47,352 nucleotides of DNA from Phycisphaerales bacterium (GTDB taxonomy: Bacteria > Planctomycetota > Phycisphaerae > UBA1845 > PWPN01). Positions 14,570 to 32,866 of this stretch are shown piece after piece. The translations under genes and the position numbers were made by a program. The notes under the pieces were generated by a model. It was given only the letters and a program-made list of their open reading frames with translations, was not told the DNA's origin and did no database searches. Location: the NCBI GenBank assembly GCA_012729595.1, contig JAAYCU010000129.1, positions 1 to 47,352 of the forward strand. Reading direction: 5' to 3'. Numbering within the stretch: position 1 is the first letter of the stretch; the number at the start of each line of letters is the position of its first letter.

Positions 14570-17500
14570 ATGGCGAGACGGAATACAACGGGTCCGGCGG
14601 CCGCGGAAACAACGAGCGCGGCTTTCGCGCGGTCTGTTACCGAAGCCTATCTGTCGGAATTGCACAACATACGGTCAACGGGTGCCGGAGTGCCGGAAAT
14701 CCCGTATTACCCCGCCCTGGCGAATCTGTTCAACGCCGTGGGCAAGACGCTGAAACCGAAGGTCCGCTGCATCATCAGTATCCAGAACCAAGGGGCGGGT
14801 ATACCGGATGGTGGCCTGTTTACGGCCGACCAGTTTCAGAAACAGGCCGATTCAACTCCCGCGAGAGGCCAGCTTCCCTCACGAGGGGCGATGGAAGTCA
14901 AAGGCACCCGTGAGGACGTTGCCCGAATCGCTCAAACCGAGCAAGTCAAAAAGTACCTCGAACGATACGGCATCGTCATCGTGACCAATCTGCGGGATTT
15001 CCTGATTGTCGAGCGTGGCCCCGCGCAACAGCCCGTGGTGGCGAGGGAATTGTTTTCCCTGGCCGACGACGAGGAGGATTTCTGGCGAAACAAGGCCGCC
15101 CACCCCCGAGCCACCGCCCAACAATGCGGCGAGCGGTTCATCGAGTTCATCAAGCGGGCCTGCCTGCATAATGCGCCATTAACGAACCCGAAAGACGTTG
15201 CCTGGTTTCTGGCCTCGTATGCCCGCGACGCCCTGGCCCGGGTCGAGGGCCATAGGCAGCTTCCCGCCCTGCAAGGGGTCCGCACGGCCCTGGAACAGGC
15301 GTTGGGTATGAGATTCACCGAGGAGAAGGGGGAGCACTTTTTCCGGTCCAGTCTCGTGCAGACGATTTTCTATGGGGTCTTTTCCGCCTGGGTGCTCTGG
15401 CATCGGGAGAACCCCGGCCCGCGTGCGCGCTTCGATTGGCGAAACGCGGCCTGGACGTTGCACGTCCCCTTCATTCGCACGATATACGAGGAACTCGCCA
15501 AACCAAGCCGGCTCGGCCCTCTGAATCTGGTGGAGGTCTTGGAATGGGTGGCCGGCGTCTTGAATCGCGTGGACCGGGCGGAGTTTTTCGGAAGGTTTCA
15601 GGAGGAGCACGCCGTCCAGTATTTCTATGAACCGTTCCTGGAGGCCTACGACCCGGATTTGCGCAAGGAAATGGGGGTCTGGTTCACCCCGCCGGAAATC
15701 GTGAAATATCAGGTGGCCCGCGTCGATACCGTGTTGCGCGAGGAATTGGAACTGCCCGACGGCCTGGCGGATCCGAACGTCATCATACTGGATCTGTGTT
15801 GCGGGACTGGGGCGTATCTGGTCGAGGTCATCCATCGTATCGCCGAGACGCTCCGCGACAAAGGGGGCGACGCCCTGCTGGCCTCGGACCTGAAGAAAGC
15901 CGCGATGGAGCGGGTATTCGGTTTCGAGATTCTGCCCGCGCCCTTCGTGGTGTCGCACCTCCAACTCGGCCTGATGCTTCAGACGCAGGGGACTCCGCTG
16001 TCGCATCAGGAAGGCGAGCGGGTCGGAGTCTATCTGACCAATGCCCTGACCGGCTGGGAACCGCCGAGAGGGGTGAAAGCCACCCTGCCTCTGTATCCCG
16101 AATTACAGGAGGAGCGGGACGCGGCCGAGGAAGTGAAACGCAAGAAAAAGATACTGGTTATTCTGGGCAACCCGCCATACAACGCCTTTGCCGGAGTCAG
16201 CCCGGAGGAGGAGCAGGGACTTGTAGAACTCTACAAGAAGGACTTGAACACGCCCGTACAGGCCGGCGGCTGGGGCATCAGGAAATTCAACCTGGATGAC
16301 CTGTATATCCGTTTCTTCCGCCTGGCCGAACGCCGTATCGCCGAGATGACCGGCAAGGGGGTGGTGTCGTTTATCTCCAACTTCTCCTATCTGGGAGACC
16401 CGTCATTCGTCGTGATGCGCCAGCGTTTTCTGGGCGAGTTCGATAAGCTCTGGTTGGACTGCATGAACGGTGACAGCCGCGAAACCGGCAAGCTCACCCC
16501 GGAAGGCCGTCCGGACCCGTCGGTATTCTCCACCGAATACAACCGAGAGGGCATCCGCGTAGGTACAGCCGTCTGTGTCATTGTCCGCAAAACAAAGCGG
16601 GAGAAGGCCCCGACTGTCCGGTTCCGTCATTTCTGGGGAGTGTCGAAAAGGGCCGACCTGCTTACGAGTCTGGACGCCAGGAATTTCGACAAGGCATACA
16701 CCCGGGCCACGCCCAGCCGTCAGAATCGCTATTCCTTTCGGCCGGAGGAGGTCGCGAAGCAATACCAGTTATGGCCTCTTGTTCCAGAACTTGGAATCGC
16801 ACACTTCAACGGTCCTGTTGAACGGCGTGCTGGTGCATTGATTTCCATAGATCCTCAACCACTTCTGGAGCGATTGCGTGCATACTTCAACAAGGAGGTT
16901 TCCAATTCGGAAGTGGCAGCCCATTATGCTTCACTCATGATGACGGGCAATCGTATTGTTGGCCCCGAGGCAAGAAAAAAGCTATTACGTGAGCATATTT
17001 TTGATTCATCATTTATCGTGCGGTATCCATTCAAGGTCTTCGATATACGATGGGCGTACTTGGCGAATATACGCCCGCTTTTCAGTGAGCCAAGCCCAGA
17101 CCTGCTGAAGCACGCAATGCTTGCTTCCAATCATTTTTTCATCACTCGCGATACCGCCGACAAGGCGAAAGAAGGACCACCATTTTACTTTGCTCCTATT
17201 GTTTGTGATTACGACTGCATATCCGGACATGCGCGTCATTTTCCGATTCTTTTAAAAGCGGATACGAACGGCGCGCCTGGCGAGAACGGTTTTTTCGACA
17301 ACGAGCAGCCTCACGTAAACTTATCCAAAGCTGCCCGCGCATATCTGGCCAAGCTCGGCATCAAGGATCCGGACAAGGATATGAAAACGGCGAGCCTGAT
17401 CTGGCTGCACGCGCTGGCGATCGGCTACAGCCCGGCGTATCTGACGGATAACACCGACGGCATCAGGCGGGACTGGCCGCGCATTCCGCTGCCCGATTCG

Positions 17501-18109
17501 CGCAAGGCCCTGGAAGCCTCGGCCGCCCTGGGCGAGAAGGTGGCGGCGCTGTTGGATACGGAAAAAGAGGTGCGGGGCGTTACCACGGGCCGAATCAGCC
17601 CGTTGTTCAGGACTATCGGGAATATCGCCAAGGTCGGGGGCGGGGCCATCAATCCCAGCAGCGATGATCTGGCGGTGACGGCCGGCTGGGGGTACGCGGG
17701 CAAGGAAGGCGTGACCATGCCGGGCAAGGGGCGGGGGGTAGTGCGGCCTTACGATGGTACCGAGAAGCGGGCCATCTCGGCAGCGGCGAAAGCGCGGAGG
17801 ATGCCCCTGCGTACAATCGTGGAGTTACTCAAGCCGGAAACGGCCGACGTGTATCTCAATGATGCCGTCTTCTGGCGGAACATTCCGGCCGAGGTTTGGA
17901 ACTTTCATATCGGCGGCTATCAGGTCATCAAGAAATGGCTGAGCTATCGCGAACGGAACCTGCTCGGCCGTAACCTGAAACCGGAGGAAGCCCGGGAAGT
18001 GACGGGTATAGCTCGCCGCATCGCGGCCCTTGTTCTCCTGCAACCGGATTTGGACGAGAATTACCGACGGGTCAAGGACTCGACTTATCCATGGACGGCC
18101 GTTAGCTGA
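14570..18109 (+). CDS. Single-chain restriction-modification enzyme: N6-adenine MTase with Type ISP-like C-terminal specificity region and putative N-terminal PD-(D/E)xK nuclease; no helicase
   Basis: YFYEPFLEAYDP, GVWFTPPEIV, motif I LDLCCGTGAY, motif IV ILGNPPY, N-terminal PDGGLF...EVKG, C-terminal DWPRIP and WNFHIGGYQVIKKWLSYR. Confidence 0.88.
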   Translation: MARRNTTGPAAAETTSAAFARSVTEAYLSELHNIRSTGAGVPEIPYYPALANLFNAVGKTLKPKVRCIISIQNQGAGIPDGGLFTADQFQKQADSTPARGQLPSRGAMEVKGTREDVARIAQTEQVKKYLERYGIVIVTNLRDFLIVERGPAQQPVVARELFSLADDEEDFWRNKAAHPRATAQQCGERFIEFIKRACLHNAPLTNPKDVAWFLASYARDALARVEGHRQLPALQGVRTALEQALGMRFTEEKGEHFFRSSLVQTIFYGVFSAWVLWHRENPGPRARFDWRNAAWTLHVPFIRTIYEELAKPSRLGPLNLVEVLEWVAGVLNRVDRAEFFGRFQEEHAVQYFYEPFLEAYDPDLRKEMGVWFTPPEIVKYQVARVDTVLREELELPDGLADPNVIILDLCCGTGAYLVEVIHRIAETLRDKGGDALLASDLKKAAMERVFGFEILPAPFVVSHLQLGLMLQTQGTPLSHQEGERVGVYLTNALTGWEPPRGVKATLPLYPELQEERDAAEEVKRKKKILVILGNPPYNAFAGVSPEEEQGLVELYKKDLNTPVQAGGWGIRKFNLDDLYIRFFRLAERRIAEMTGKGVVSFISNFSYLGDPSFVVMRQRFLGEFDKLWLDCMNGDSRETGKLTPEGRPDPSVFSTEYNREGIRVGTAVCVIVRKTKREKAPTVRFRHFWGVSKRADLLTSLDARNFDKAYTRATPSRQNRYSFRPEEVAKQYQLWPLVPELGIAHFNGPVERRAGALISIDPQPLLERLRAYFNKEVSNSEVAAHYASLMMTGNRIVGPEARKKLLREHIFDSSFIVRYPFKVFDIRWAYLANIRPLFSEPSPDLLKHAMLASNHFFITRDTADKAKEGPPFYFAPIVCDYDCISGHARHFPILLKADTNGAPGENGFFDNEQPHVNLSKAARAYLAKLGIKDPDKDMKTASLIWLHALAIGYSPAYLTDNTDGIRRDWPRIPLPDSRKALEASAALGEKVAALLDTEKEVRGVTTGRISPLFRTIGNIAKVGGGAINPSSDDLAVTAGWGYAGKEGVTMPGKGRGVVRPYDGTEKRAISAAAKARRMPLRTIVELLKPETADVYLNDAVFWRNIPAEVWNFHIGGYQVIKKWLSYRERNLLGRNLKPEEAREVTGIARRIAALVLLQPDLDENYRRVKDSTYPWTAVS

Positions 18110-21558: not shown

Positions 21559-21606
21559 CCCGACGACCTGCTTGTGCGACCATCGCGGACGCTGAAAAAT
21601 GCGCGC

Positions 21607-21658
21607 AAAAAGTCGCCCGCGCTTTGGGGGAGGTTAGAGTCGCGGAGAGCGCGGGCGA
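21607..21658 (-). terminator. Intrinsic-terminator-like hairpin, minus-strand orientation
   Basis: 11-bp stem tcgcccgcgct (21613-21623) / agcgcgggcga (21648-21658), followed on the minus strand by CTTTTT. The loop is long (24 nt). Confidence 0.55.
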
Positions 21659-21882
21659 AAGGGAATGGACTGTTTATGAATACAACAAGCACGACCGGCA
21701 GAGCCGATCGCCCAGACATGGTCCTAAAACCAAAACATTCCTCCAGAATATTACGGCCGGCCAGGCCGTTGATAGGCTCTATTTGCCTCGGTTACACATG
21801 CTCGGCCGACCCAGATTTGACCCCTTGGGGGCGGCGGAACGGCAATGATTCCAAACACTACCCTACGTATAACACGACAGTA

Positions 21883-21911
21883 AGTCTAACCGTTGGCATC
21901 GGTATTTTCAA
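21883..21911 (-). promoter_or_regulatory. Sigma70-like promoter, minus strand
   Basis: TTGAAA (21911-21906), 17 nt, TAGACT (21888-21883), with an AT-rich tract upstream. Confidence 0.45.
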
Positions 21912-22203
21912 TCGTAATTCTTATAAACAGATAAGTATATTTTTGCCATGAATAAGTATTATTCATTTACAATAAATAGCTAAGCCCCTAAATTGACAAT
22001 AATGTTCGTATACACAACAAGATCGTATAATGGGCAATATGGATAATCATGAGACGAGAAGCCGTTTTGGTTGGCATGACGTTTGGCCGTCATCGCGGAA
22101 TGATTCCGGTTCTATTGTAATTTGGCAGAACCGTTTATTCACGGTCCAGCCCATTCGCTTGGGACCCGGGGAGATTGTAGATATTTGTGGTTGTCGCAAG
22201 ATT

Positions 22204-22212
22204 TGTTATGAT
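22204..22212 (+). promoter_or_regulatory. Extended -10 element (TGnTATGAT) upstream of uORF-secDF
   Basis: tgttatgat about 30 nt before the uORF start. No clean -35. Confidence 0.35.
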
Positions 22213-22244
22213 CGGGCACCTCGAAACTTGTCGATCAGGAGCTG

Positions 22245-22667
22245 ATGAGCATGTCCTGGTTTAGAGTCTGGGCTTTTCTGTGCTTGCTGCTGGGAACGTC
22301 GGCCTTGCCGGCGATCAGCCGGAGTGCGTCTGCACAACCGCCCATGGCTTATGACCGGGCCGAGTCTGTGCCGACAGAATCGGCGTCCGAAGGCCAGCCA
22401 CCGATTGATGCGGACAACGAAGAAAAGTCTTCCGCATGCTTCTGCGTTCCGCAGGTTGACGTATGGGACGGCCCGACGACCCGGCTGACGTTGACAGGGG
22501 CGGGTCAAGTATTGATACCGACCTTGATGGGGATCCATGCGGATTGCCCATCAACCCTGCCGAACGGGGGTCGGCATTTTATTACCGTCTGTCGTTTTCC
22601 GACCGGGCCAACCGCCCGCTACTGGCTGGCCAATCGCTACCCTCATGCACCTCCGGGACAGGTTTAG
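22245..22667 (+). CDS. Secreted upstream ORF ending in HAPP; candidate translation-arrest monitoring peptide for secDF
   Basis: SD AGGAG before ATG, signal peptide ending ASA, low-complexity spacer, C-terminus RYWLANRYPHAPPGQV*. Lies 205 nt upstream of secDF. Confidence 0.7.
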   Translation: MSMSWFRVWAFLCLLLGTSALPAISRSASAQPPMAYDRAESVPTESASEGQPPIDADNEEKSSACFCVPQVDVWDGPTTRLTLTGAGQVLIPTLMGIHADCPSTLPNGGRHFITVCRFPTGPTARYWLANRYPHAPPGQV

Positions 22668-22872
22668 GAATCCGGCGAACCGATCGGATTCTCTGGCCGC
22701 CGGGCCCGCGAGCGGAGGTGTTCATTCTATTGTTGCACCAGTTCGCAAAGGGCTACGCGGTTGTAGTCGGTCAAAAACTCAAATACGCATATTTACGGGT
22801 GATAGCGACACGTTCGGGTTTAGATTCATAATGAATTTCGTTAGTTGGTCGTTTTTTCAGTGAGGAACAGTC

Positions 22873-25800
22873 ATGGGCGAGAAGAACCTTTGGTGGAAAG
22901 TCCTTTTGATTTTCGTGCTGGTCGGCATGTGTGCTTGGCAACTCTATCCGGTCGATCAGAAGCTGCGGGGTGGTATCGACTTGGTCGGCGGTTATAGCCT
23001 GTTATTTGAAATCGACGAAAGCGATATGGGTAGCGAGGAAAGACAGAACCTGGCCGAGCGGGTGATGACCGTACTCAAGCAGCGGGTGGATCCGCAGGGC
23101 AATCGCAACCTCGTGTGGCGTCCGATCGGGCAGAACCGTCTGGAAATACAGATGCCTCGCCCTATGGGAGACGTGCAGGGGCCGCGCGATGCCTTTGAGA
23201 AGGCCCGTACGCAACTTGCGGCCAGCAATATCACCGCGGCGCAGATTCGGGCGGTTATGAATATGCCTTTAGAGCAGCAGGGTGAGGCCTTCGCCGGGCT
23301 GGTACGTGATGTCAGCCGACGCCAGAGTCTCTTCGATGGGCTGGTCGAGAACCAGAAACAATACGAGGAAATCCGGCAGCAGGTCGAGCGGCCCGCAGCC
23401 ACTGACCCGGCTGTGGAAGCGGAAGCAGAGGCGGACTCGGAGACACCGCCGGCCACCCAGCGGATCGATGCCGATCAATATCAGAAGCTTGATCGCTTGC
23501 TGGAGGAACGCCGTGGATTAATTGCTCAGATATTGCAGACCAATATTGCCATGGACCGGTTGGAGGATTTGCTGGCCCTCGATCCGAAATCCACGCTTCG
23601 CAAGGAGGGCCTGGAGGAGCTTTTCGAGCAGCATCCGAACCTGGCCTCTCGGATTGAAACCCTGGCGACCGCGTATGACGCCTATTCCAAGAACAAAGGG
23701 ATGCTGGATGATCCTTCGGACCTGATGCGCATGCTCCGGGGGGCCGGCGTGTTGGAGTTCCGTATTCTGGCCATGCGGGATTCGCGTTCGCCGAATATGC
23801 TGGAGTCCTCACAGCCGCAGTATAACGAGTCGGTTGACCGCTACGTCGAGCAATTGGCTAAATACGGTCCGCGCTTACAGGCTGGGGACAATTACCAGTG
23901 GTTCAGGACTTCCGATCCAAACGACGACAGTTGGAAGTATCCCGGTTACATAGTTCAGGAATACATGGGTCACCCTTACGTACTGGCATTTTCGAACCAT
24001 GCGAGCGATATGGTATTGATGAATGATCGGACATGGTCGCTGAAGAGTGCCCGTCCCAGCCGCGATCAGATGGGAAGACTGGCCATAAGTTTCGCTCTGG
24101 ATCCGCGGGGTGGAAACCGATTCGGGGCCATGACCGGAAACAATATTGATCGGCCTTTGTGTATTTTCCTGGACAATCAAGCCATCTCGGCCGCGACGAT
24201 CCGAAGTCAGATTTATGATCGTGGGGAAATCACGGGGAACTTCTCGCCGGATTACGTTAATTATATGGTAAGCACGCTGGAGGCGGGGGTCTTGCCGGCC
24301 CGGCTGCGGGAAGTGCCCTTGCAGGAAAAGAACATCGGCCCCTCGCTGGGCCAGACCAACCGAGAGAAAGGCACGCGGGCGGTTATGATCGCTTTCGCAG
24401 CCACCGTGGCCTTCATGATTCTCTACTACGCTTATTGTGGGATGATCGCGGACATCGCGCTATTGATGAATCTGGTGCTTACCTTGGGAATCATGTCGTT
24501 TCTTCAGGCGACCTTTACCCTGCCGGGTATCGCGGGCCTGATCCTAACCTTGGGTATGGCCGTGGACGCCAACGTGCTGATTAACGAACGCATCCGAGAG
24601 GAGCTGGGGCGTGGTATTTCCGTGCGTATGGCGGTCAAGCTGGGTTACGAGAAAGCCTTCAGCGCGATTCTCGACTCGAACGTGACCACGATCATGACCG
24701 CGGTGATCCTGGCCTCGCTGGGCAGCGAGGAAATCAAGGGGTTCGGGATGACCCTGGGGATTGGTTTGGTTACCAGCATGTTCACCGCTCTGTTCGTGAC
24801 CCGGCAGTTTTTCCACGTCATGGTGCCGACGACGTTGAAATCGACGGAAACGCGGAAGGCCTGGCTGACGGCGGGGATCATGGGTCTGGTCTGCGGGTTC
24901 TTCCTGGCGCTCGGGGCCCTGTTCAATGCTCCGGCGGAGCGGGTCGATTCGACTCTGTGGCAGTTGGGCCGCTTCCTGCTGTGGCTGTTCGGCACGGCGG
25001 TGGTCTTGCTCGTGGCGATGTGGGTGTTCCGGTTTTTTTATTACGCGACGGGACGTCAGAAGAACAACCGCCTGTCCATGATGAAGTTGCTGAGCAAGAC
25101 GAGCGTCAACTGGATGGCCAAGTACCGCGCGTTCTGGGCGGTTTCGGCCGTGGTCATCGTGGGGGGCATCATCCTGGAATTGCGGGTGAATTACGAGGAT
25201 TACCTGGACATCGAGTTTATCGGGGGCACCAGCGTGCAGGTGCAATTGAAGGACACGCCTGAATTGCGGGAGGAATTCCGCGTGCAGGCCGACGAGAAAC
25301 TACTGAGCGATTACATCGGCACCAGTCCGGGGGAGAGCAATCCGGAGTTGGCGACGGGCTGGCTGCGTCAGGCGGCGGACCTGCTGGATCAAGCGGAGAT
25401 CAAGGATTTGGGTAAGGGACGCTATCAGATTGGTTTGCCCGGAGATTTAAGCACGTCTCAAATCCGCGGCTTGTTGTTAACCCCGCGATTGGAGGCTGGC
25501 ATTGCACGCGATGGGATCTCCGATATGCCGGGCGGCGTGTACGTTCAATTCGGAGAACGGGATCCATCTCATGCGGTGTGTAACCTGGTCGAGCAGCTAG
25601 CGCGGTTGGCGAGCGAGGGACGAATCGAGGATGCTCGCCGCGAAGCCCAGAACCAGAAAGAACTATTGGGTCGGTATCCGGAAGGTCAGCAGATACAGGC
25701 CTTAGTGCAGGATAAGAAGCTACAGGGTCCGGAACTGGCGGCGGGCCTGACGGAGCTTGGTACACGGCTTGAAAATTGGCCGGCCGAAACGGTCAAGGAG

Positions 25801-27183
25801 CGAATCGCCGAAGCTGCGGCCATGGCCCGTTCAGCGGCGGAACGGTTGCGACTGGCCCGGGTGCAGATGGTCGAGTCAGATACGCCAGACGGACAACCCT
25901 CGTTCGAGATCATTTGTACCGAGCCGAATAAGAATCTCGTGGCCGAAGCCCTCTTGGCCAGCATGGGCAACATTTTGCAGGTAGTCCTTCCGATTGAGGC
26001 TAATCTGGTCAAGGATATTGACAAGGCGGCGGACGGTATCTTCCCGATTCGGCCAGAGGATGATGTGCTGGGTGTAGTCGTTGGGAGCGATGACGAGCAT
26101 TCGGTAGCGGAGTTCAAAGGCGGATTCGCATTGGTCTTTGACGATCTTCGGCCGCCGCAGAGTGCCGAAGACATCGAAAAGCGGCTACGGGACATGCGCT
26201 TGCAACCGGACTTCGAGGATCTGGCTTGGCGGCAACCTCGGGTCGTGGGTCTGGAACCGGTGGCAGAGGCATCCTCTTTGGGGGGGGCCATGCTGTACAA
26301 GAAGGTAGCCATTCTGGTCAAGGACGATCAGGCGTTGTATGTAGTGGGCGAGGATAATGATGGTTGGCGCAGAATGGCGGAGCAGGAGTTGTATCTGGCT
26401 CAGGCCGCTCTGGCCAGCACGCGTTCGCTGGAGCGGGTGACGCAGTTCGCCCCGCAGGTAGCCGCCGAAACCGCCCAGAAGGCGATTATCGGCCTGATTC
26501 TCGCGTTGATCGCCATCGCGGGTTATCTGTGGATGCGGTTCGGGTCGGTGCAATTCGGCGTGGCGGGCATCATCGCCTTGTACCACGACGTGGCCGTCAC
26601 TCTGTCCGCCGTGATGGTCTGCCATCATTTGCATGATACGGCCGTCGGCCAGGCGTTGTTGTTACAGGATTTCAAGATCGACCTGACCATCATCGCCGCC
26701 ATGCTGACCATCGTCGGTTTCTCGATCAACGACACGATCGTAATTTTCGACCGGATCCGCGAGTTGCGCGGGCGGCTGGCGACGGTCTCGCCGACCCTGA
26801 TTAACACGGCCATCAACCAGACCCTGTCCCGAACCATCATCACTTCGTTCACCACTTTCATCGTGGTTTTGCTGATGTACATATTTGGCGGCGACGGGGT
26901 GCATGGTTTTGCCTTCGCGATGATCATGGGGTGCCTCAGCGGCGTGTACAGCACGATCGCGATCGCGACGCCGATGCTCCAGCACCCGCGGGCGATGTGG
27001 ATCACGACCATATTCCTCGGCTCGGTCACGGCGATCGGCATCGTGTACACGATCAGCGCCCAGTTCCCCACGATCCGGACGGTGCTGATTGGGATCGTGA
27101 TGGTGCTGGCCGCCATCGCGATTATCAAGCAGGTTGCCGGTATGCTCGCGGAAAAGGCCGGCCGCCCGGCACACGCGGCGTAA
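22873..27183 (+). CDS. secDF: Fused SecD-SecF translocase subunit, unusually large (1436 aa)
   Basis: GIDLVGG, IGPSLG, TLPGIAGLILTLGMAVDANVLINERIREE, DIEFIGGT, GFSINDTIVIFDRIRE, INQTLSRTIITS. Confidence 0.95.
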   Translation: MGEKNLWWKVLLIFVLVGMCAWQLYPVDQKLRGGIDLVGGYSLLFEIDESDMGSEERQNLAERVMTVLKQRVDPQGNRNLVWRPIGQNRLEIQMPRPMGDVQGPRDAFEKARTQLAASNITAAQIRAVMNMPLEQQGEAFAGLVRDVSRRQSLFDGLVENQKQYEEIRQQVERPAATDPAVEAEAEADSETPPATQRIDADQYQKLDRLLEERRGLIAQILQTNIAMDRLEDLLALDPKSTLRKEGLEELFEQHPNLASRIETLATAYDAYSKNKGMLDDPSDLMRMLRGAGVLEFRILAMRDSRSPNMLESSQPQYNESVDRYVEQLAKYGPRLQAGDNYQWFRTSDPNDDSWKYPGYIVQEYMGHPYVLAFSNHASDMVLMNDRTWSLKSARPSRDQMGRLAISFALDPRGGNRFGAMTGNNIDRPLCIFLDNQAISAATIRSQIYDRGEITGNFSPDYVNYMVSTLEAGVLPARLREVPLQEKNIGPSLGQTNREKGTRAVMIAFAATVAFMILYYAYCGMIADIALLMNLVLTLGIMSFLQATFTLPGIAGLILTLGMAVDANVLINERIREELGRGISVRMAVKLGYEKAFSAILDSNVTTIMTAVILASLGSEEIKGFGMTLGIGLVTSMFTALFVTRQFFHVMVPTTLKSTETRKAWLTAGIMGLVCGFFLALGALFNAPAERVDSTLWQLGRFLLWLFGTAVVLLVAMWVFRFFYYATGRQKNNRLSMMKLLSKTSVNWMAKYRAFWAVSAVVIVGGIILELRVNYEDYLDIEFIGGTSVQVQLKDTPELREEFRVQADEKLLSDYIGTSPGESNPELATGWLRQAADLLDQAEIKDLGKGRYQIGLPGDLSTSQIRGLLLTPRLEAGIARDGISDMPGGVYVQFGERDPSHAVCNLVEQLARLASEGRIEDARREAQNQKELLGRYPEGQQIQALVQDKKLQGPELAAGLTELGTRLENWPAETVKERIAEAAAMARSAAERLRLARVQMVESDTPDGQPSFEIICTEPNKNLVAEALLASMGNILQVVLPIEANLVKDIDKAADGIFPIRPEDDVLGVVVGSDDEHSVAEFKGGFALVFDDLRPPQSAEDIEKRLRDMRLQPDFEDLAWRQPRVVGLEPVAEASSLGGAMLYKKVAILVKDDQALYVVGEDNDGWRRMAEQELYLAQAALASTRSLERVTQFAPQVAAETAQKAIIGLILALIAIAGYLWMRFGSVQFGVAGIIALYHDVAVTLSAVMVCHHLHDTAVGQALLLQDFKIDLTIIAAMLTIVGFSINDTIVIFDRIRELRGRLATVSPTLINTAINQTLSRTIITSFTTFIVVLLMYIFGGDGVHGFAFAMIMGCLSGVYSTIAIATPMLQHPRAMWITTIFLGSVTAIGIVYTISAQFPTIRTVLIGIVMVLAAIAIIKQVAGMLAEKAGRPAHAA

Positions 27184-27242: not shown

Positions 27243-27584
27243 TTCTGCGCCGGGTGGGTTATTCACCACCAAGCTCGCCAACCACGGAGATAAGACGGAG
27301 ATAAGAGAGACGGGGGAATACGCCGCTTTTCCACGGCCTACCCGCGAACTTCCAGATGCCGCACGACCAATCGAATGGCGTCGTAGGGAATCTCGCCGCC
27401 AAGTTTGTCGTAAAGGGGCCATGAGGATTCATTCACATTTCCGCGTATTTTCTGATAATATCGTTCGAGACCGGGAACCGACGATTCGGGTATACGTTCG
27501 GATTTCAGGGAGGGGCGGGCCTACAATGGATAAAACTGGCTACCGGATTCGTTTTTTTTCGAGACTTGATTGGGAAGGTGCATC

Positions 27585-29930
27585 ATGATCGTATGGCGAA
27601 CCTTGGGGTTGGGACTCGGGCTGCTGATCGGGGTTTGTTTGGTTCATGGTCAGGAGCCCGTGGCGGCCGGTCAGGTCAAAACTTCTTTACTGGCGGATCG
27701 CTCGGCCATCACGCCCGGAGGGACCGTCGAATTGGCGGTCGTTTTCGAAATCCCCGACGGCTGGCATATTTATTGGCGGAACCGGGGCGAGGGGGGGATG
27801 GAGACGACCTTGGCCTGGAAACTGCCGGATGGTTTTGTCCTCGGCCCCGTGCGTTTTCCGCGGCCGAAGCGCTATATCGACGCGACCGGGGCCCATACGT
27901 TCATTCTGGAACGGCGGCCGGTGGTTCTCGCGGAACTGCGAGCCCCGAGTGACATCCAGGCCGGTCAGTCCGTGGAAATCGAAGTGGATGCCCGCTGGGC
28001 CGCCTGTAAAGAGTCCTGCGTTCTGGGCGCGGAGCGTTTGAAGCTGACCCTGCCGGTGACGGCCGACGCCGAAGAAGCGAAGTTGCTTCACGAGGATCAG
28101 TTTACGTTCGCCCGTGGGCAAGTGCCCTTGCCGATGGAGGAGGCGGCGTATCTCAAGCGTTTTGAGGCGAAGGCTAACGTGGACCGGATTCAATCGGGAA
28201 AGAAATTCGAGGTCGCGGTGGTCATCGAGGTGGCGGACGGATTTTATCTGTATGCACATGAACCGTTGGCGCAGGGACTCAATCCCACGGACCTGTTCCA
28301 TGACAGTGTAACCGGGCTGGTCTTCGATCGCCCCCGCTTTCCGCCGGGGCAGATGATCCAATCGTACGGCATGACCTTCTCGGTGTACAAGGACCGGGCG
28401 GTGGTGATTCTGCCGGTCGAGGCGCATGTGTTGCCGGCCGGAGAGGAAGTGCGCATCGGTGGAGTGTTGACCTATCAGGCTTGCAGCGAGCAGACGGGGC
28501 AATGCATGATGCCGACGGCGGCGGAGTGGTCGCTCACGATTCCGGTGGCCGACGCCGGCGAGGCGGTACGGACGGCGAACGAAGAATTGTTCAGGAGTAC
28601 GGCGGACTATCAAGCCGCTGGAGCGGGCAAGGGGCCGGACGGTCGAACACCATCAAGCGAGGCGGGGCAGGGTTTCACGCTGGACAGCGTGGTGCGGACT
28701 ACCGCCCGGCAGCGTGAGTATCCGCTGGCGGTCTGGCTGATATTTGCTTTTCTGGCCGGCGTGATCCTCAATATCACGCCCTGCGTCCTGCCGGTGATCT
28801 CGATCAAGGTGCTCAGTTTCGTGCAGCAGGCGAGCGAGTCGCCGGCCAGGGTATTTCGACTTGGGTTGGCTTTTTCGTTGGGGATGCTGGCGATTTACAA
28901 CGTCCTGGCGATCCTGGCCACGGCGGCGGGGCTGGTCTGGGGTCAGCATTTTCAGAGCCCGACGTTTACCCTGGTGATGGCCTCGGTGATCTTCGTTTTC
29001 GGATTGAGCGTTTACGGAGTGTTTACCCTCGGCGTGCCGCGGGCGGTGGGCGATCTAGCCGGGCAGGCTGAGGGTGAAGGTTATCTCGGCTCGGTCGCCA
29101 AGGGAGCGTTGGCGACGTTGATGGGGACGCCTTGCCTCGGGCCGTTTTTGGGGTCGGTGCTGGTGTGGTTGGCGACCCAGCCGCCGGTTTTGGTGTTCCT
29201 GATTTTCAACACGATCGGGTTGGGGATGGCTTTGCCCTATATTCTGTTGACCGCGCGCCCAGGCTGGCTGCGTTTCGTGCCCAAGGCCGGTCCTTGGCTG
29301 GAGACGTTCAAGCAGGCGATGGCCTTTTTGCTGATGGGCACGGTGATCTACCTGTTAGGCATCCTGAATAAGCAACTCGGCGGGTCGGCGGTAGTCTGGT
29401 CACTGGTCTTGCTGATGAGTCTGGCGATAGCCTGCTGGATCATCGGTCGCTGGCTGACTGCGGAAACCTCGGCCGGCGGGCGGATGATTGTTCTGGCCGT
29501 CGCCGTGGGCGTTGCCAGCCTGGGCGGATGGGTGAGTTATGGCCGCGGGTTCCGGCCGCCGTCAGATAGCGTGTTGCCCTGGGTGCCGTTTTCGATGGAG
29601 AAACTGACCGAGTTGACCGCCGAGGGACGCACCGTGTTCCTCGACATCACCGCGGACTGGTGTCCGAACTGCAAGTACAACATGGAATTCGTCTTTCATA
29701 CGGAGGAGGTGGCGGAGGCCATTCGGGAATATGATGTGGTTCCGATGCTGGCGGACTGGACGGGGCAGGATCCGACCATTGGCCGGCTGGTGAACATGCT
29801 GGCCCCCGGTGGCAGCGTGCCCTTGTGTGCGGTATTTCCCGCAGGCCGCCCAGATGAGCCGATCGTCATGCTTGAAATCGTCACCAAGCGGCAGGTGATC
29901 GAGGCCTTGCGACAGGGGTCGGGGAGGTGA
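27585..29930 (+). CDS. dsbD: Thiol:disulfide interchange protein DsbD (two N-terminal Ig-like domains, TM domain, thioredoxin domain)
   Basis: GWHIYWRNRG, ACKESC, YQACSEQTGQC, LNITPCVLPVISIK, GTPCLGP, TADWCPNCK. Confidence 0.9.
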   Translation: MIVWRTLGLGLGLLIGVCLVHGQEPVAAGQVKTSLLADRSAITPGGTVELAVVFEIPDGWHIYWRNRGEGGMETTLAWKLPDGFVLGPVRFPRPKRYIDATGAHTFILERRPVVLAELRAPSDIQAGQSVEIEVDARWAACKESCVLGAERLKLTLPVTADAEEAKLLHEDQFTFARGQVPLPMEEAAYLKRFEAKANVDRIQSGKKFEVAVVIEVADGFYLYAHEPLAQGLNPTDLFHDSVTGLVFDRPRFPPGQMIQSYGMTFSVYKDRAVVILPVEAHVLPAGEEVRIGGVLTYQACSEQTGQCMMPTAAEWSLTIPVADAGEAVRTANEELFRSTADYQAAGAGKGPDGRTPSSEAGQGFTLDSVVRTTARQREYPLAVWLIFAFLAGVILNITPCVLPVISIKVLSFVQQASESPARVFRLGLAFSLGMLAIYNVLAILATAAGLVWGQHFQSPTFTLVMASVIFVFGLSVYGVFTLGVPRAVGDLAGQAEGEGYLGSVAKGALATLMGTPCLGPFLGSVLVWLATQPPVLVFLIFNTIGLGMALPYILLTARPGWLRFVPKAGPWLETFKQAMAFLLMGTVIYLLGILNKQLGGSAVVWSLVLLMSLAIACWIIGRWLTAETSAGGRMIVLAVAVGVASLGGWVSYGRGFRPPSDSVLPWVPFSMEKLTELTAEGRTVFLDITADWCPNCKYNMEFVFHTEEVAEAIREYDVVPMLADWTGQDPTIGRLVNMLAPGGSVPLCAVFPAGRPDEPIVMLEIVTKRQVIEALRQGSGR

Positions 29931-31783: not shown

Positions 31784-32866
31784 TTACCGGCCGTGTTCGC
31801 GTTGGTATTGGCTGTTCAGTTCGGGATCGAGCACGCTGATAGCCGCGGTATCTAACAATTCCTGTTGCAATTCGTCCTGACGCAGGCGGATCAGGCGATC
31901 AAGGAAACGTTGCCGTAAGGTCTGCGGGTCGGCCTGTTCGAAGCTGACCTGGCTGGCGGGGAAACGCCTCTCCAGTCTAAGGATCTGATAGACGCCGCCT
32001 TCGTGAATTGTTGTGGAAATCGCGCCTTCCTGAAGCTGGAAGGCGGCCTCGCGGATCAGGGGGGAGACGGCCGGGTCGTGTCGGGTGAAGGGCGGCAGTA
32101 ATCCACCCTGGTCGGCGGTCAAGGGGTTTTCGCTAAACTGGCGAGCGAGCAGTTCGAAGTCCTTGCCGGATGCCAGCAGGGTGCGGATGTTCCGGGCGGC
32201 CTCCAGGCTCGACAGTTGTATATGCCTGACCTGGATTCGTTCGGCATAGTCCAGGTTGTATTGCTCGCGGAGCATGGCCTCGCTGATCTGCATTTGCTCC
32301 GTTTCCGCGACGGCGATCTTGCGCAGTAAGGCGAGCGTTTCCATACGCAGATCCCATTCCCGGGTCGAGATATTTTTCGCCCGGAGGATCTGTTCCAGTT
32401 GGCGTTGGGCGGCGGGGCGATCGAGTGGAGGCGTGTCGGGGCGGACGATGGGGGTGGCGATCCGCTGGAGGGCGTTTTCATGCTCGGTGGCGACGTCGGC
32501 CGGCGTGATCGAAAGGCTCAGGTCCGCGGCCCGCTGGCGGGCGAGTTGCAGGAGGATTAACTGCTCCAATATCTTCAGGCCGTGGCTGTGGATCAGCAGT
32601 TCGGTCAACTGTGATCGGTAAATGGGCTTTCCGCCAACTTTGGCGACAATCGCGTCGGCGGGCGGTTCATGGTCGGTGGCGGTGGCCGGCTGCGATGATA
32701 ACGCATCTCCGGTTGGCTTGGGCGCCGCCGACGGTGTTTCATTTGGCGCGGGTGTTTCCCAGGCGGTGAATACGGATGGGCCGGTCGATACGTTCTGCTG
32801 CTGGCAGCCGGAAAGCAGGATCGTCGTAAGCAAGCCGAGCAAGCCACATAATCGTGCCATGAGCAA
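31784..32866 (-). CDS. Parvulin-type peptidyl-prolyl isomerase lipoprotein (PrsA/SurA-like)
   Basis: Lipobox LLSGC, IVAKVGG, VRHIQL, DFELLARQFS, QGGLL, AAFQL. Confidence 0.85.
   Translation of the reverse strand: MLMARLCGLLGLLTTILLSGCQQQNVSTGPSVFTAWETPAPNETPSAAPKPTGDALSSQPATATDHEPPADAIVAKVGGKPIYRSQLTELLIHSHGLKILEQLILLQLARQRAADLSLSITPADVATEHENALQRIATPIVRPDTPPLDRPAAQRQLEQILRAKNISTREWDLRMETLALLRKIAVAETEQMQISEAMLREQYNLDYAERIQVRHIQLSSLEAARNIRTLLASGKDFELLARQFSENPLTADQGGLLPPFTRHDPAVSPLIREAAFQLQEGAISTTIHEGGVYQILRLERRFPASQVSFEQADPQTLRQRFLDRLIRLRQDELQQELLDTAAISVLDPELNSQYQREHGR

Follow-up and report, generated by a model that had tools for sequence, protein, structure and literature searches.

A short open reading frame (ORF) ending in His-Ala-Pro-Pro lies directly ahead of the translocase gene secDF, where yajC often stands, in a 47,352-nucleotide (nt) stretch of DNA from a Phycisphaerales bacterium (assembly GCA_012729595.1, contig JAAYCU010000129.1, positions 1 to 47,352 of the forward strand; this whole stretch is called the window below). 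Does it encode a protein of the translocon, is it an accident of annotation, or does its nascent chain arrest the ribosome and so tune the expression of secDF? An earlier note, drawn from the letters of the window, had proposed the last of these. Export-monitoring arrest peptides are a textbook form of nascent-chain signalling; nearly all mechanistic work on them has dealt with Arg-containing motifs and with E. coli or B. subtilis ribosomes. The comparative analysis described here favors arrest: the ORF, here called the leader, probably encodes a Sec-targeted, RAPP-like ("RQH") translation-arrest peptide, in a lineage-specific H-A-P-P form, that would feed back on secDF. A pause or arrest of the ribosome at the two prolines, Pro134 and Pro135, is likely on this evidence. 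Feedback of the stall on secDF in response to export is held with less assurance than the pause. Stalling, its release by export and its coupling to secDF are what we infer from conserved sequence and from analogy with known leaders.

The leader frame and its target

All coordinates are window positions on the + strand, and the peptide is numbered from the ATG at 22251. As listed and as read from the sequence, the ORF runs from 22245 to 22667 and is 140 amino acids (aa) long, its C-terminal end being ...ARYWLANRYPHAPPGQV before the stop. A Shine-Dalgarno (SD) sequence, AGGAG, read at 22237..22241, stands 3 nt ahead of the ATG at 22245 and 9 nt ahead of a second in-frame ATG at 22251. Two congeners have an ATG solely at the place equivalent to 22251, with the identical SD and spacing, and the public gene call, which carries no name in its source, is 138 aa long. 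Because of the SD spacing, the congeners' single ATG and this gene call, translation most likely starts at 22251, and the leader would be a peptide of 138 aa (22251-22664; 22251..22667 with the stop) ending in ...WLANRYPHAPPGQV. Thus, the 140-aa frame of the earlier note stands, and the start it had placed at 22245 gives way to the ATG at 22251.

The last codons of the frame are CAT (22644-46), GCA (22647-49), CCT (22650-52) and CCG (22653-55), then three more codons and TAG (22665-67), which give H132-A133-P134-P135 followed by G-Q-V. The Pro codons had been placed correctly at 22650..22655; by analogy with ApdA/ApdP, those of Pro134 (CCT) and Pro135 (CCG) are predicted to occupy the P site and A site of the stalled ribosome. 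The three-residue tail GQV, which is not conserved, and the TAG stop cover 22656..22667. Of the 20,902 six-frame ORFs in the genome that reach 80 aa, 2 have a terminal HAPP followed by 1-3 residues, and for x[AG]PP in general, with the same tail, the number is 41; the HAPP ending of the leader is more than chance.

No Pfam match (E <= 0.01) and no NCBIfam match was obtained for the leader. An 84-sequence profile matched no PDB chain at E <= 10, in a library in which it is unchecked whether the chains of ApdA, ApdP, SecM and VemP are of adequate length. A search of the ESM Atlas returned unnamed clusters only, and a word-index protein search, a method blind to the leader family, returned only the window's own protein. 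Together with the sequence itself, the Pfam, NCBIfam and PDB scans confirm an ORF with its own SD, no recognisable domain and a HAPP-GQV end.

The presumed regulated target is the fused secDF gene at 22873..27183 (+), which encodes 1436 aa with matches to Pfam SecD_SecF_C (6.6e-61) and SecDF_P1_head (3.2e-20). This is the sole true SecDF in the genome; the three other loci with weak PF02355 similarity are open frames of 1047-1108 aa. The leader stop lies 205 nt before it on the same strand (spacer 22668..22872, +), so the position directly upstream of secDF is borne out. YajC is encoded on another contig of the host genome.

A leader in the place of yajC

The genome sets compared here overlap and all their members are kin, so that the counts describe one lineage and not independent events. 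A search with the single sequence found relatives in 17 of 41 genomes, many of them with weak matches. A profile built from 13 homologues found the leader ORF in 28 of the 35 genomes of the host family, spread over 13 of its 16 genera; outside the family, the same profile gave two weak matches with in-frame stops only, among 166 genomes of the host order. At the 27 family loci that reach the secDF start, the ORF ends 110-283 nt before secDF and carries the motif HAPP (23 loci), HGPP (2), NAPP (1) or NPPP (1). Searching 1.84 billion representatives with a profile retrieved 89 proteins with E <= 1e-3, of which 65 have HAPP, 11 NAPP, 6 HGPP and 2 NPPP; QAPP, NGPP and QPPP occur once each, and the remaining two are a truncated protein and one with LAPP.

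In genomes missed by the profile, and in the other families, secDF was located by its N-terminal 150 residues and the preceding DNA was read. In the five family genomes left without a profile match, the pre-secDF ORF ends in HAPPIA, LAPPCA (twice), QAPPAA and QGPPAR. One genome was read from each of ten other families of the order: eight have an ORF ending in HGPP, LAPP, HAPP (three genomes), TGPP, CGPP or IGPP plus 1-3 residues, one has YajC upstream of secDF, and one is ambiguous. When a SecDF alignment was run against species-representative genomes, it yielded 80 related loci, all in metagenome-assembled genomes (MAGs) titled Phycisphaerae, Phycisphaerales, Planctomycetales or Planctomycetota; at two of the loci, the DNA ahead of secDF is shorter than 300 nt. 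A qualifying ORF, at least 60 aa long, ending in x[AGSP]PP plus 0-3 aa and lying no more than 450 nt from secDF, is present at 58 of the 80, compared with 1 of 80 on the reverse complement and 0 of 80 in other frames inside secDF. With a looser limit on the tail, 74 of the 80 loci have a motif ORF, HAPP accounting for 40. The check named in the earlier note, whether relatives keep the motif and its place ahead of secDF, therefore comes out strongly in favor of its claim, both in the family genomes (28/35) and at the MAG loci (58/80).

Ten genomes from outside the order in which secDF was located, four of them from other orders of the class and six from other classes, were read at the same position. 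YajC, confirmed by Pfam, is upstream of secDF in nine and L19 in one, and a motif ORF in none. Among the sampled genomes, the leader is a trait of one order, in the place held by yajC in neighbouring lineages. Descent of the leader from YajC was considered and rejected: the hhalign probability against a YajC alignment is 0.13%, and there is no match to PF02699 or any other Pfam family.

Anatomy of the peptide family

Information content in the family alignment of 84 representatives peaks in three regions only, namely the signal sequence, residues 67-78 and residues 125-135, and at a lone Pro, residue 41. The signal peptide and the end of the chain are thus conserved as had been foreseen; that they alone would be conserved does not hold, since the third block, residues 67-78, is kept at a fixed distance from the two prolines.

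The N-terminal signal sequence (residues 1-28; 22251..22334, +) contains R5 and a hydrophobic core ending in LPA, and then ASA/Q. Conserved across the 84 sequences are M1, R5, the hydrophobic core and T-L-P-A; read by eye, cleavage would fall at A-S-A/Q after residue 28. AlphaFold places a helix at residues 3-22, with predicted local distance difference test (pLDDT) values of 94/86, and this helix and the conserved hydrophobic block support the Sec signal peptide of the earlier note. A hydrophobic N-terminal 12-mer passing a strict cut-off is found at 49 of the 57 related loci with a tail of no more than 3 residues.

The mid block, P..D.WD....R, was recognised in the conservation profile and spans residues 67-78 (22449..22484, +), here PQVDVWDGPTTR. 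W72 is present in 76 of the 84 sequences and R78 in 73. The strongest conservation is in the C-terminal block WLANRYPHAPP (residues 125-135; 22623..22655, +), the putative arrest sequence, for which the family consensus is WLxCRY(A/P)HAPP; P134 and P135 are invariant (84/84). What is kept of the tail after the prolines is its length, 3 aa at 22 of the 27 family loci and in 51 of 87 representatives; its residues are not conserved.

Spacing is well kept on one side of the mid block and loose on the other. From W72 to P134 the median distance is 62 residues (exactly 62 in 37 of 84; standard deviation 3.1), and the intervening sequence is not conserved; from the signal sequence to W72 the distance varies from 35 to 84 (standard deviation 8.9). 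LPA and P134 are 97-145 residues apart in the family, with a median of 113, and the hydrophobic core and the motif have a median separation of 114 in the wider MAG set. When 57 loci were examined, 26 had a D-x-W-D/H-type block, and in 21 of these the Trp lies 56-65 residues before the first Pro. The block is shared by loci with unlike C-terminal contexts, such as ...EAGTLPIVSHAPP, ...SRPNRPHAPP and ...DPNHRAHAPP.

Two further forms were observed. A separate secDF-leader subfamily, represented by 18 related MAG loci, ends in ...LH(R/H)P(A/T/V)(Y/H)xA(H/L/Q)APP plus 1-2 residues and has its own mid-block, ...FVAxxxAKP..., ~50-60 residues upstream, in place of the Trp block. One congener has ...CRYHNPPPSFS before its stop in place of ...RYPHAPP..., a three-proline variant with a 3-residue tail and a Trp spacing of 60.

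Structure prediction gave little beyond the signal. From the 84-row alignment, AlphaFold returned a mean pLDDT of 66 and a predicted template modelling score (pTM) of 0.26, with the signal helix and a short helix at 120-129 only, and the ESM Atlas model has a pLDDT of 0.41. The product, as modelled, is a leader peptide and not a folded protein.

Selection on the peptide and codon choice at the prolines

At the four HAPP codons, comparison of the window with 26 family loci covers 104 codons, of which 68 differ synonymously and 5 non-synonymously. On this excess of synonymous changes, selection acts on the peptide rather than on the RNA.

Codon choice at the motif is itself biased. Over 73 distinct loci, the first Pro codon is CCG in 32, CCC in 7, CCT in 21 and CCA in 13; Pro usage over the 100 codons that precede it in these ORFs predicts 40, 19.7, 6.8 and 6.5, respectively (chi-square 46; p 5e-10, a value inflated by kinship). 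The first position thus prefers CCU and CCA and avoids CCC, while the second Pro codon is unbiased (p 0.34). At the Ala codon of the motif, GCA is over-used (18/65 versus a background of 11%). A bias confined to one of the two Pro positions would be expected if a stalled ribosome held the first of them in its P site. That CCU and CCA are the codons preferred there might have to do with the tRNA isoacceptor used, with keeping out C-runs, or with an anti-SD-like CCUCC, which occurs at 21 of the 73 loci.

A model for arrest and release

In the favored model, translation would start at the ATG at 22251 and the signal sequence would take the nascent chain to SecYEG. The ribosome would then stall with the Pro134 and Pro135 codons in its P and A sites, presumably helped by the 11 conserved residues lying in the upper exit tunnel, until active translocation pulls on the chain and releases the stall. 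At release, the D-x-W-D...R block, ~62 residues back, would be past the tunnel and at or beyond the translocon. When export is poor, the ribosome would remain parked on the last codons of the leader and secDF expression would go up. To act across the 205-nt spacer, the parked ribosome might cause the mRNA to refold, block transcription termination, or protect the transcript.

The regular spacing of the mid block invites an extension of the model, speculative and itself unlikely. The peptide may carry a built-in ruler, in which the conserved D-x-W-D...R "handle", ~62 residues from the stall, is grasped by SecDF or another periplasmic factor to release the ribosome; the system, with its His-based motif, would then measure SecDF activity and not the general Sec flux. 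When the ribosome arrests, the handle would be expected to have just begun to emerge from SecYEG into the periplasm. The idea is based on the recurrence of the handle at 56-65 residues in subfamilies with unrelated arrest-proximal sequences, while the distance to the signal drifts. Furthermore, the order-wide exclusion of Arg from the motif may be a sign that arrest peptide and ribosome are matched to each other in this lineage.

Evidence against arrest and feedback

Two groups of observations weigh against the arrest and feedback model, the one concerning the peptide and the ribosome, the other the coupling to secDF. The Arg that is essential in ApdA/ApdP is absent from the first motif position here, occurring in 0 of 87 motif-bearing representatives and at 0 of 74 motif-bearing loci; the residue is His in the window, Asn or Gln in relatives, and Leu, Thr, Cys, Ile or Val further off. 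Since L, T, C, I, V, Q and N are all tolerated within the order, the first residue may matter little, and the pause could be an ordinary Pro-Pro pause sensitive to the elongation factor EF-P. According to Fujiwara 2024 (PMC10987492), the one HAPP peptide tested stalled E. coli ribosomes only weakly and had a low arrest index in B. subtilis cells. No experiment on the leader peptide or on ribosomes of its lineage was found in the literature searched.

The coupling was sought in the RNA between the leader and secDF. A hairpin lies directly 3' of the stop codon (22667..22692, +; alternative stem CCGGCG/CGCCGG at 22672-22677/22697-22702). A GC-rich post-stop stem is also present in two congeners, with one compensatory change, and over the 27 family loci its stability is not significantly different from shuffles (mean z -0.61). 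The SD of secDF, GAGGA, read at 22862..22866 (+), lies in a weak, U-rich local hairpin only and is the only conserved k-mer of the spacer (13 of the 27 loci have GAGGAA at -11). Between 21300 and 23000, neither an Rfam nor a tRNA scan gave a match. The whole spacer folds no better than shuffles (z 0.61); predicted accessibility of the SD over the 27 loci is 0.43 when free and 0.45 with a parked ribosome; complementarity between the arrest-proximal 60 nt and the SD has a mean z of -0.14 versus shuffles; and, ranked among other segments of the same size, the HAPP codons are unremarkable in their pairing with the SD (median percentile 0.37, with 3 of 27 loci at <=0.1). By our own estimate, 32% of the SD pairing falls on the 3' end of the ORF, against ~29% expected from its length. 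In addition, a sigma-70-like hexamer pair in the spacer, GCGACA-16-CATAAT (9/12) at 22805-22832, which is not kept in two congeners, leaves room for transcription of secDF independent of the leader.

In an RNAalifold prediction for three congeners, CCUC from the A-P-P codons forms a helix with the GAGG of the SD; both sides are invariant and show no covariation. As a general anti-SD, the HAPP codons are ruled out by the 27-locus pairing test; such a role is possible at the roughly one third of loci with CCUCC (21/73). The switch would then be either idiosyncratic to each species, beyond the reach of such prediction, or a coupling of another kind, through transcription termination or transcript stability.

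Alternative explanations

The second of these options amounts to an alternative that differs from the favored model in its last step only: the arrest peptide would act on transcription or on the fate of the mRNA, by blocking termination or Rho loading or by shielding the transcript. We consider this a real possibility, if a minority one. No SD-unmasking structure was found, the spacer is long (110-283 nt), and the 3-residue tail would put the front edge of a parked ribosome at about the stop codon, before the GC-rich stem, as estimated from general knowledge of the ribosomal footprint. However, the post-stop stems in the window are followed by no U-run and no + strand terminator-like site was called in 22667-22872; the first 40 nt after the stop (C 0.33, G 0.30) are not clearly a C-rich, G-poor loading site; and the stability of the stem is on average not above that of shuffles. 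A Pro-Pro pause might, on the other hand, report translation capacity (EF-P activity or the supply of prolyl-tRNA) and not export, the signal sequence being incidental. It is true that the two prolines are the only invariant residues, that the preceding position varies (H, N, Q, L, T, C, I, V), that rare Pro codons are enriched at the first Pro, and that differences between results in vitro and in vivo for HAPP, QAPP and RAPP peptides are ascribed to EF-P in Fujiwara 2024 (PMC10987492). A pause of this kind is nevertheless very unlikely to be the whole function: the N-terminus is hydrophobic at 49 of 57 loci, the spacer fits those of Sec monitors, the target is always secDF, and a conserved block at a fixed 62 residues would have no role.

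Without any stalling, the ORF could encode a small protein, exported or anchored in the membrane, that serves the translocon as an accessory and took the place of YajC, its conserved blocks being protein contact sites. The leader does stand where YajC is found in nine of the ten genomes from outside the order and in one family within it; besides, its chain combines a signal sequence with two conserved blocks, and no RNA switch was found. But YajC is still encoded elsewhere, the leader is unrelated to it, and no fold is predicted (pTM 0.26). Subfamilies with nothing else in common all end in x(A/G)PP plus 2-3 residues, the tail keeps its length and the mid block its 62-residue distance although the sequence in between drifts, and the codon bias is at the first Pro codon only. 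Because shared endings, fixed geometry and codon bias are not expected of a binding motif, the accessory protein is weakened as an explanation, and we regard it as distinctly unlikely. The chance that the frame is a spurious or mis-annotated ORF without function is negligible. No library holds a named homologue of it; yet it is kept open, with its SD, across 13 genera, it has 68 synonymous against 5 non-synonymous differences, and a motif ORF is found at 58 of 80 loci against 1 of 80 on the antisense strand. For practical purposes, these comparative data refute a chance ORF. The arrest peptide feeding back on secDF is thus retained as the favored explanation.

Genomic surroundings and expression

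Upstream of the leader is tatD, followed by a 690-nt gap (21559-22236) without a convincing gene or Rfam match; an AT-rich sigma-70-like site lies within the gap at 21966-21994. The wider neighbourhood consists of housekeeping and envelope genes (S16, TrmD, YraN, DsbD, parvulin). DsbD (27570-29930) is directly downstream of secDF, and a parvulin-type peptidyl-prolyl isomerase is encoded nearby on the opposite strand (31784-32866, -). Beside the rpsP-trmD cluster, a large ORF at 14570-18109 joins an N6 DNA methylase domain to a C-terminal specificity domain of Type ISP and resembles a restriction-modification gene of the single-polypeptide kind.

The locus was found at 95-100% identity in contigs from bioreactor and biogas-fermenter runs. 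One 223-nt contig from a metatranscriptome library matches 22239-22461 exactly; an RNA library can hold DNA and the contig gives neither strand nor ends, so that it can do no more than hint at transcription of the leader. Contigs of the RNA libraries gave no coverage over 22462-23600. Another metatranscriptome contig overlaps 21627-21674 and then continues into dissimilar sequence. Strain variants from three other runs fall at third codon positions (22349, 22478) and at first or second positions (22558, 22560, 22614); none of those in the three runs is inside 22623-22655, the C-terminal block.

Significance

Members of the lineage are uncultured, Phycisphaerae-like planctomycetes known from digesters and sludge, and nearly all of their genomes put a His/Asn/Gln-Ala-Pro-Pro leader before the sole secDF. 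The ~90 diverged sequences constitute a natural series for asking what replaces the Arg contact, what share of the arrest resides in the 11 tunnel residues, and what role is played by the 62-residue spacing and the tail. The model of an SD-masking hairpin is not obviously transferable to this lineage. Should the leader already be listed in the 2024 catalogue discussed below, what is added is its anatomy: a ruler, a tail of set length, a biased codon choice, yajC displaced from its usual place and a distribution limited to one order.

Comparison with known arrest peptides

The closest known class comes from the screen of Fujiwara 2024 (PMC10987492). About 30,000 GTDB genomes were screened for upstream ORFs (uORFs) of secA, secDF and yidC, the candidates being those of unannotated function with an N-terminal signal, as predicted with SignalP and DeepTMHMM, a conserved C-terminus and a spacer of >30 residues. 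One outcome was the RQH family, whose RAPP-like motifs include H-A-P-P and Q-A-P-P; it comprises 19 order-level groups from nine phyla, 11 of them upstream of secDF, and the groups are said to have nothing but the motif in common. The leader shows every sequence-level attribute of the class: it is an unannotated uORF of secDF on the same strand, with an N-terminal signal and a RAPP-like motif. Its spacer exceeds 30 residues and its order holds more than two motif uORFs, with HAPP in 23 of 27 family loci and in three further families. Thus, of the proposed "planctomycete HAPP-variant arrest peptide", the RQH-class anatomy is upheld, and the HAPP variant as a new idea is not, H-A-P-P upstream of secDF being already part of the RQH family as described there.

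Two RQH members described in that paper are especially close. Like the leader, uDF_RQH_Lachnospirales is a secDF uORF with an N-terminal localisation signal and a C-terminal H-A-P-P, and the numbering of its constructs (H129, PP131, end at 135) suggests the same 3-residue tail. The H129A mutation compromised its arrest with B. subtilis ribosomes, and H129A and PP131AA served as arrest-defective controls; in vitro, its arrest was efficient with B. subtilis ribosomes only, and in vivo it was weak. Unlike the leader, it belongs to the Firmicutes, and neither a mid-block nor a ruler is described for it in the available text; this is a comparison by description and not by sequence. uDF_RQH_WSZJ01, a Planctomycetes bacterium gene from an order in class MHYJ01, has R104APP and arrested with fAP > 0.9. 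It is likewise a planctomycete secDF uORF with a RAPP-like end, apparently followed by 3 residues (construct end 110); it differs in having Arg and not His, in its length of ~110 aa and in coming from a different class of the phylum. As to other Sec genes, the same source reports that secA is preceded by LPPP leaders in three planctomycete orders, Phycisphaerales among them. In the host genome, no ORF with a Pro-rich C-terminal motif was seen upstream of secA, and the upstream region of yidC is cut by a contig end.

ApdA and ApdP resemble the leader in their position upstream of secDF, in having a signal or anchor and in the C-terminal x-A-P-P. Their Arg is buried in a 23S rRNA pocket, where it makes five hydrogen bonds and accounts for every side-chain contact of the motif with the rRNA, and its replacement by Ala abolishes stalling (Morici 2024, PMC10951233). 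The leader differs in that His, Asn and Gln cannot reproduce these essential contacts, and there is no detectable homology. In uDF_RQH_Enterobacterales (Alteromonas), arrest induces secDF2 by opening a second stem-loop, which masks the SD, and mutations in this stem-loop restore expression (PMC10987492). No equivalent, conserved SD-masking helix was found at the leader locus, and the host genome has a single secDF where that system controls a second copy.

The leader shares with SecM and VemP its Sec targeting and long spacer. Spacers between signal and motif are reported as medians of 131.5 or 71 for SecM, 133 for VemP and 54 for the YidC monitor MifM; at ~113-114 residues, that of the leader falls in the range of the Sec monitors SecM and VemP and not in that of MifM. 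Arrest of SecM and VemP is released by export, and a regulatory element reported in the spacer is a precedent for the mid block. Their arrest sequences differ from that of the leader, that of SecM being R-A-G-P, and no Pfam or PDB match links them to it. YajC is like the leader in lying directly upstream of secDF in relatives outside the order, and unlike it in sequence. A search of full-text literature gave no other relevant paper linking HAPP arrest peptides with Planctomycetota or with names beginning in Phycisphaer-, and neither a 2025 EMBO J paper nor the 2026 LudP preprint mentions HAPP. On these comparisons, the leader appears to be a new, possibly already catalogued, member of the RQH arrest-peptide class. 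To that class, the present analysis adds an order-wide distribution in the place of yajC, a motif that excludes Arg throughout, a 62-residue ruler, a 3-residue tail and a codon bias at the first Pro.

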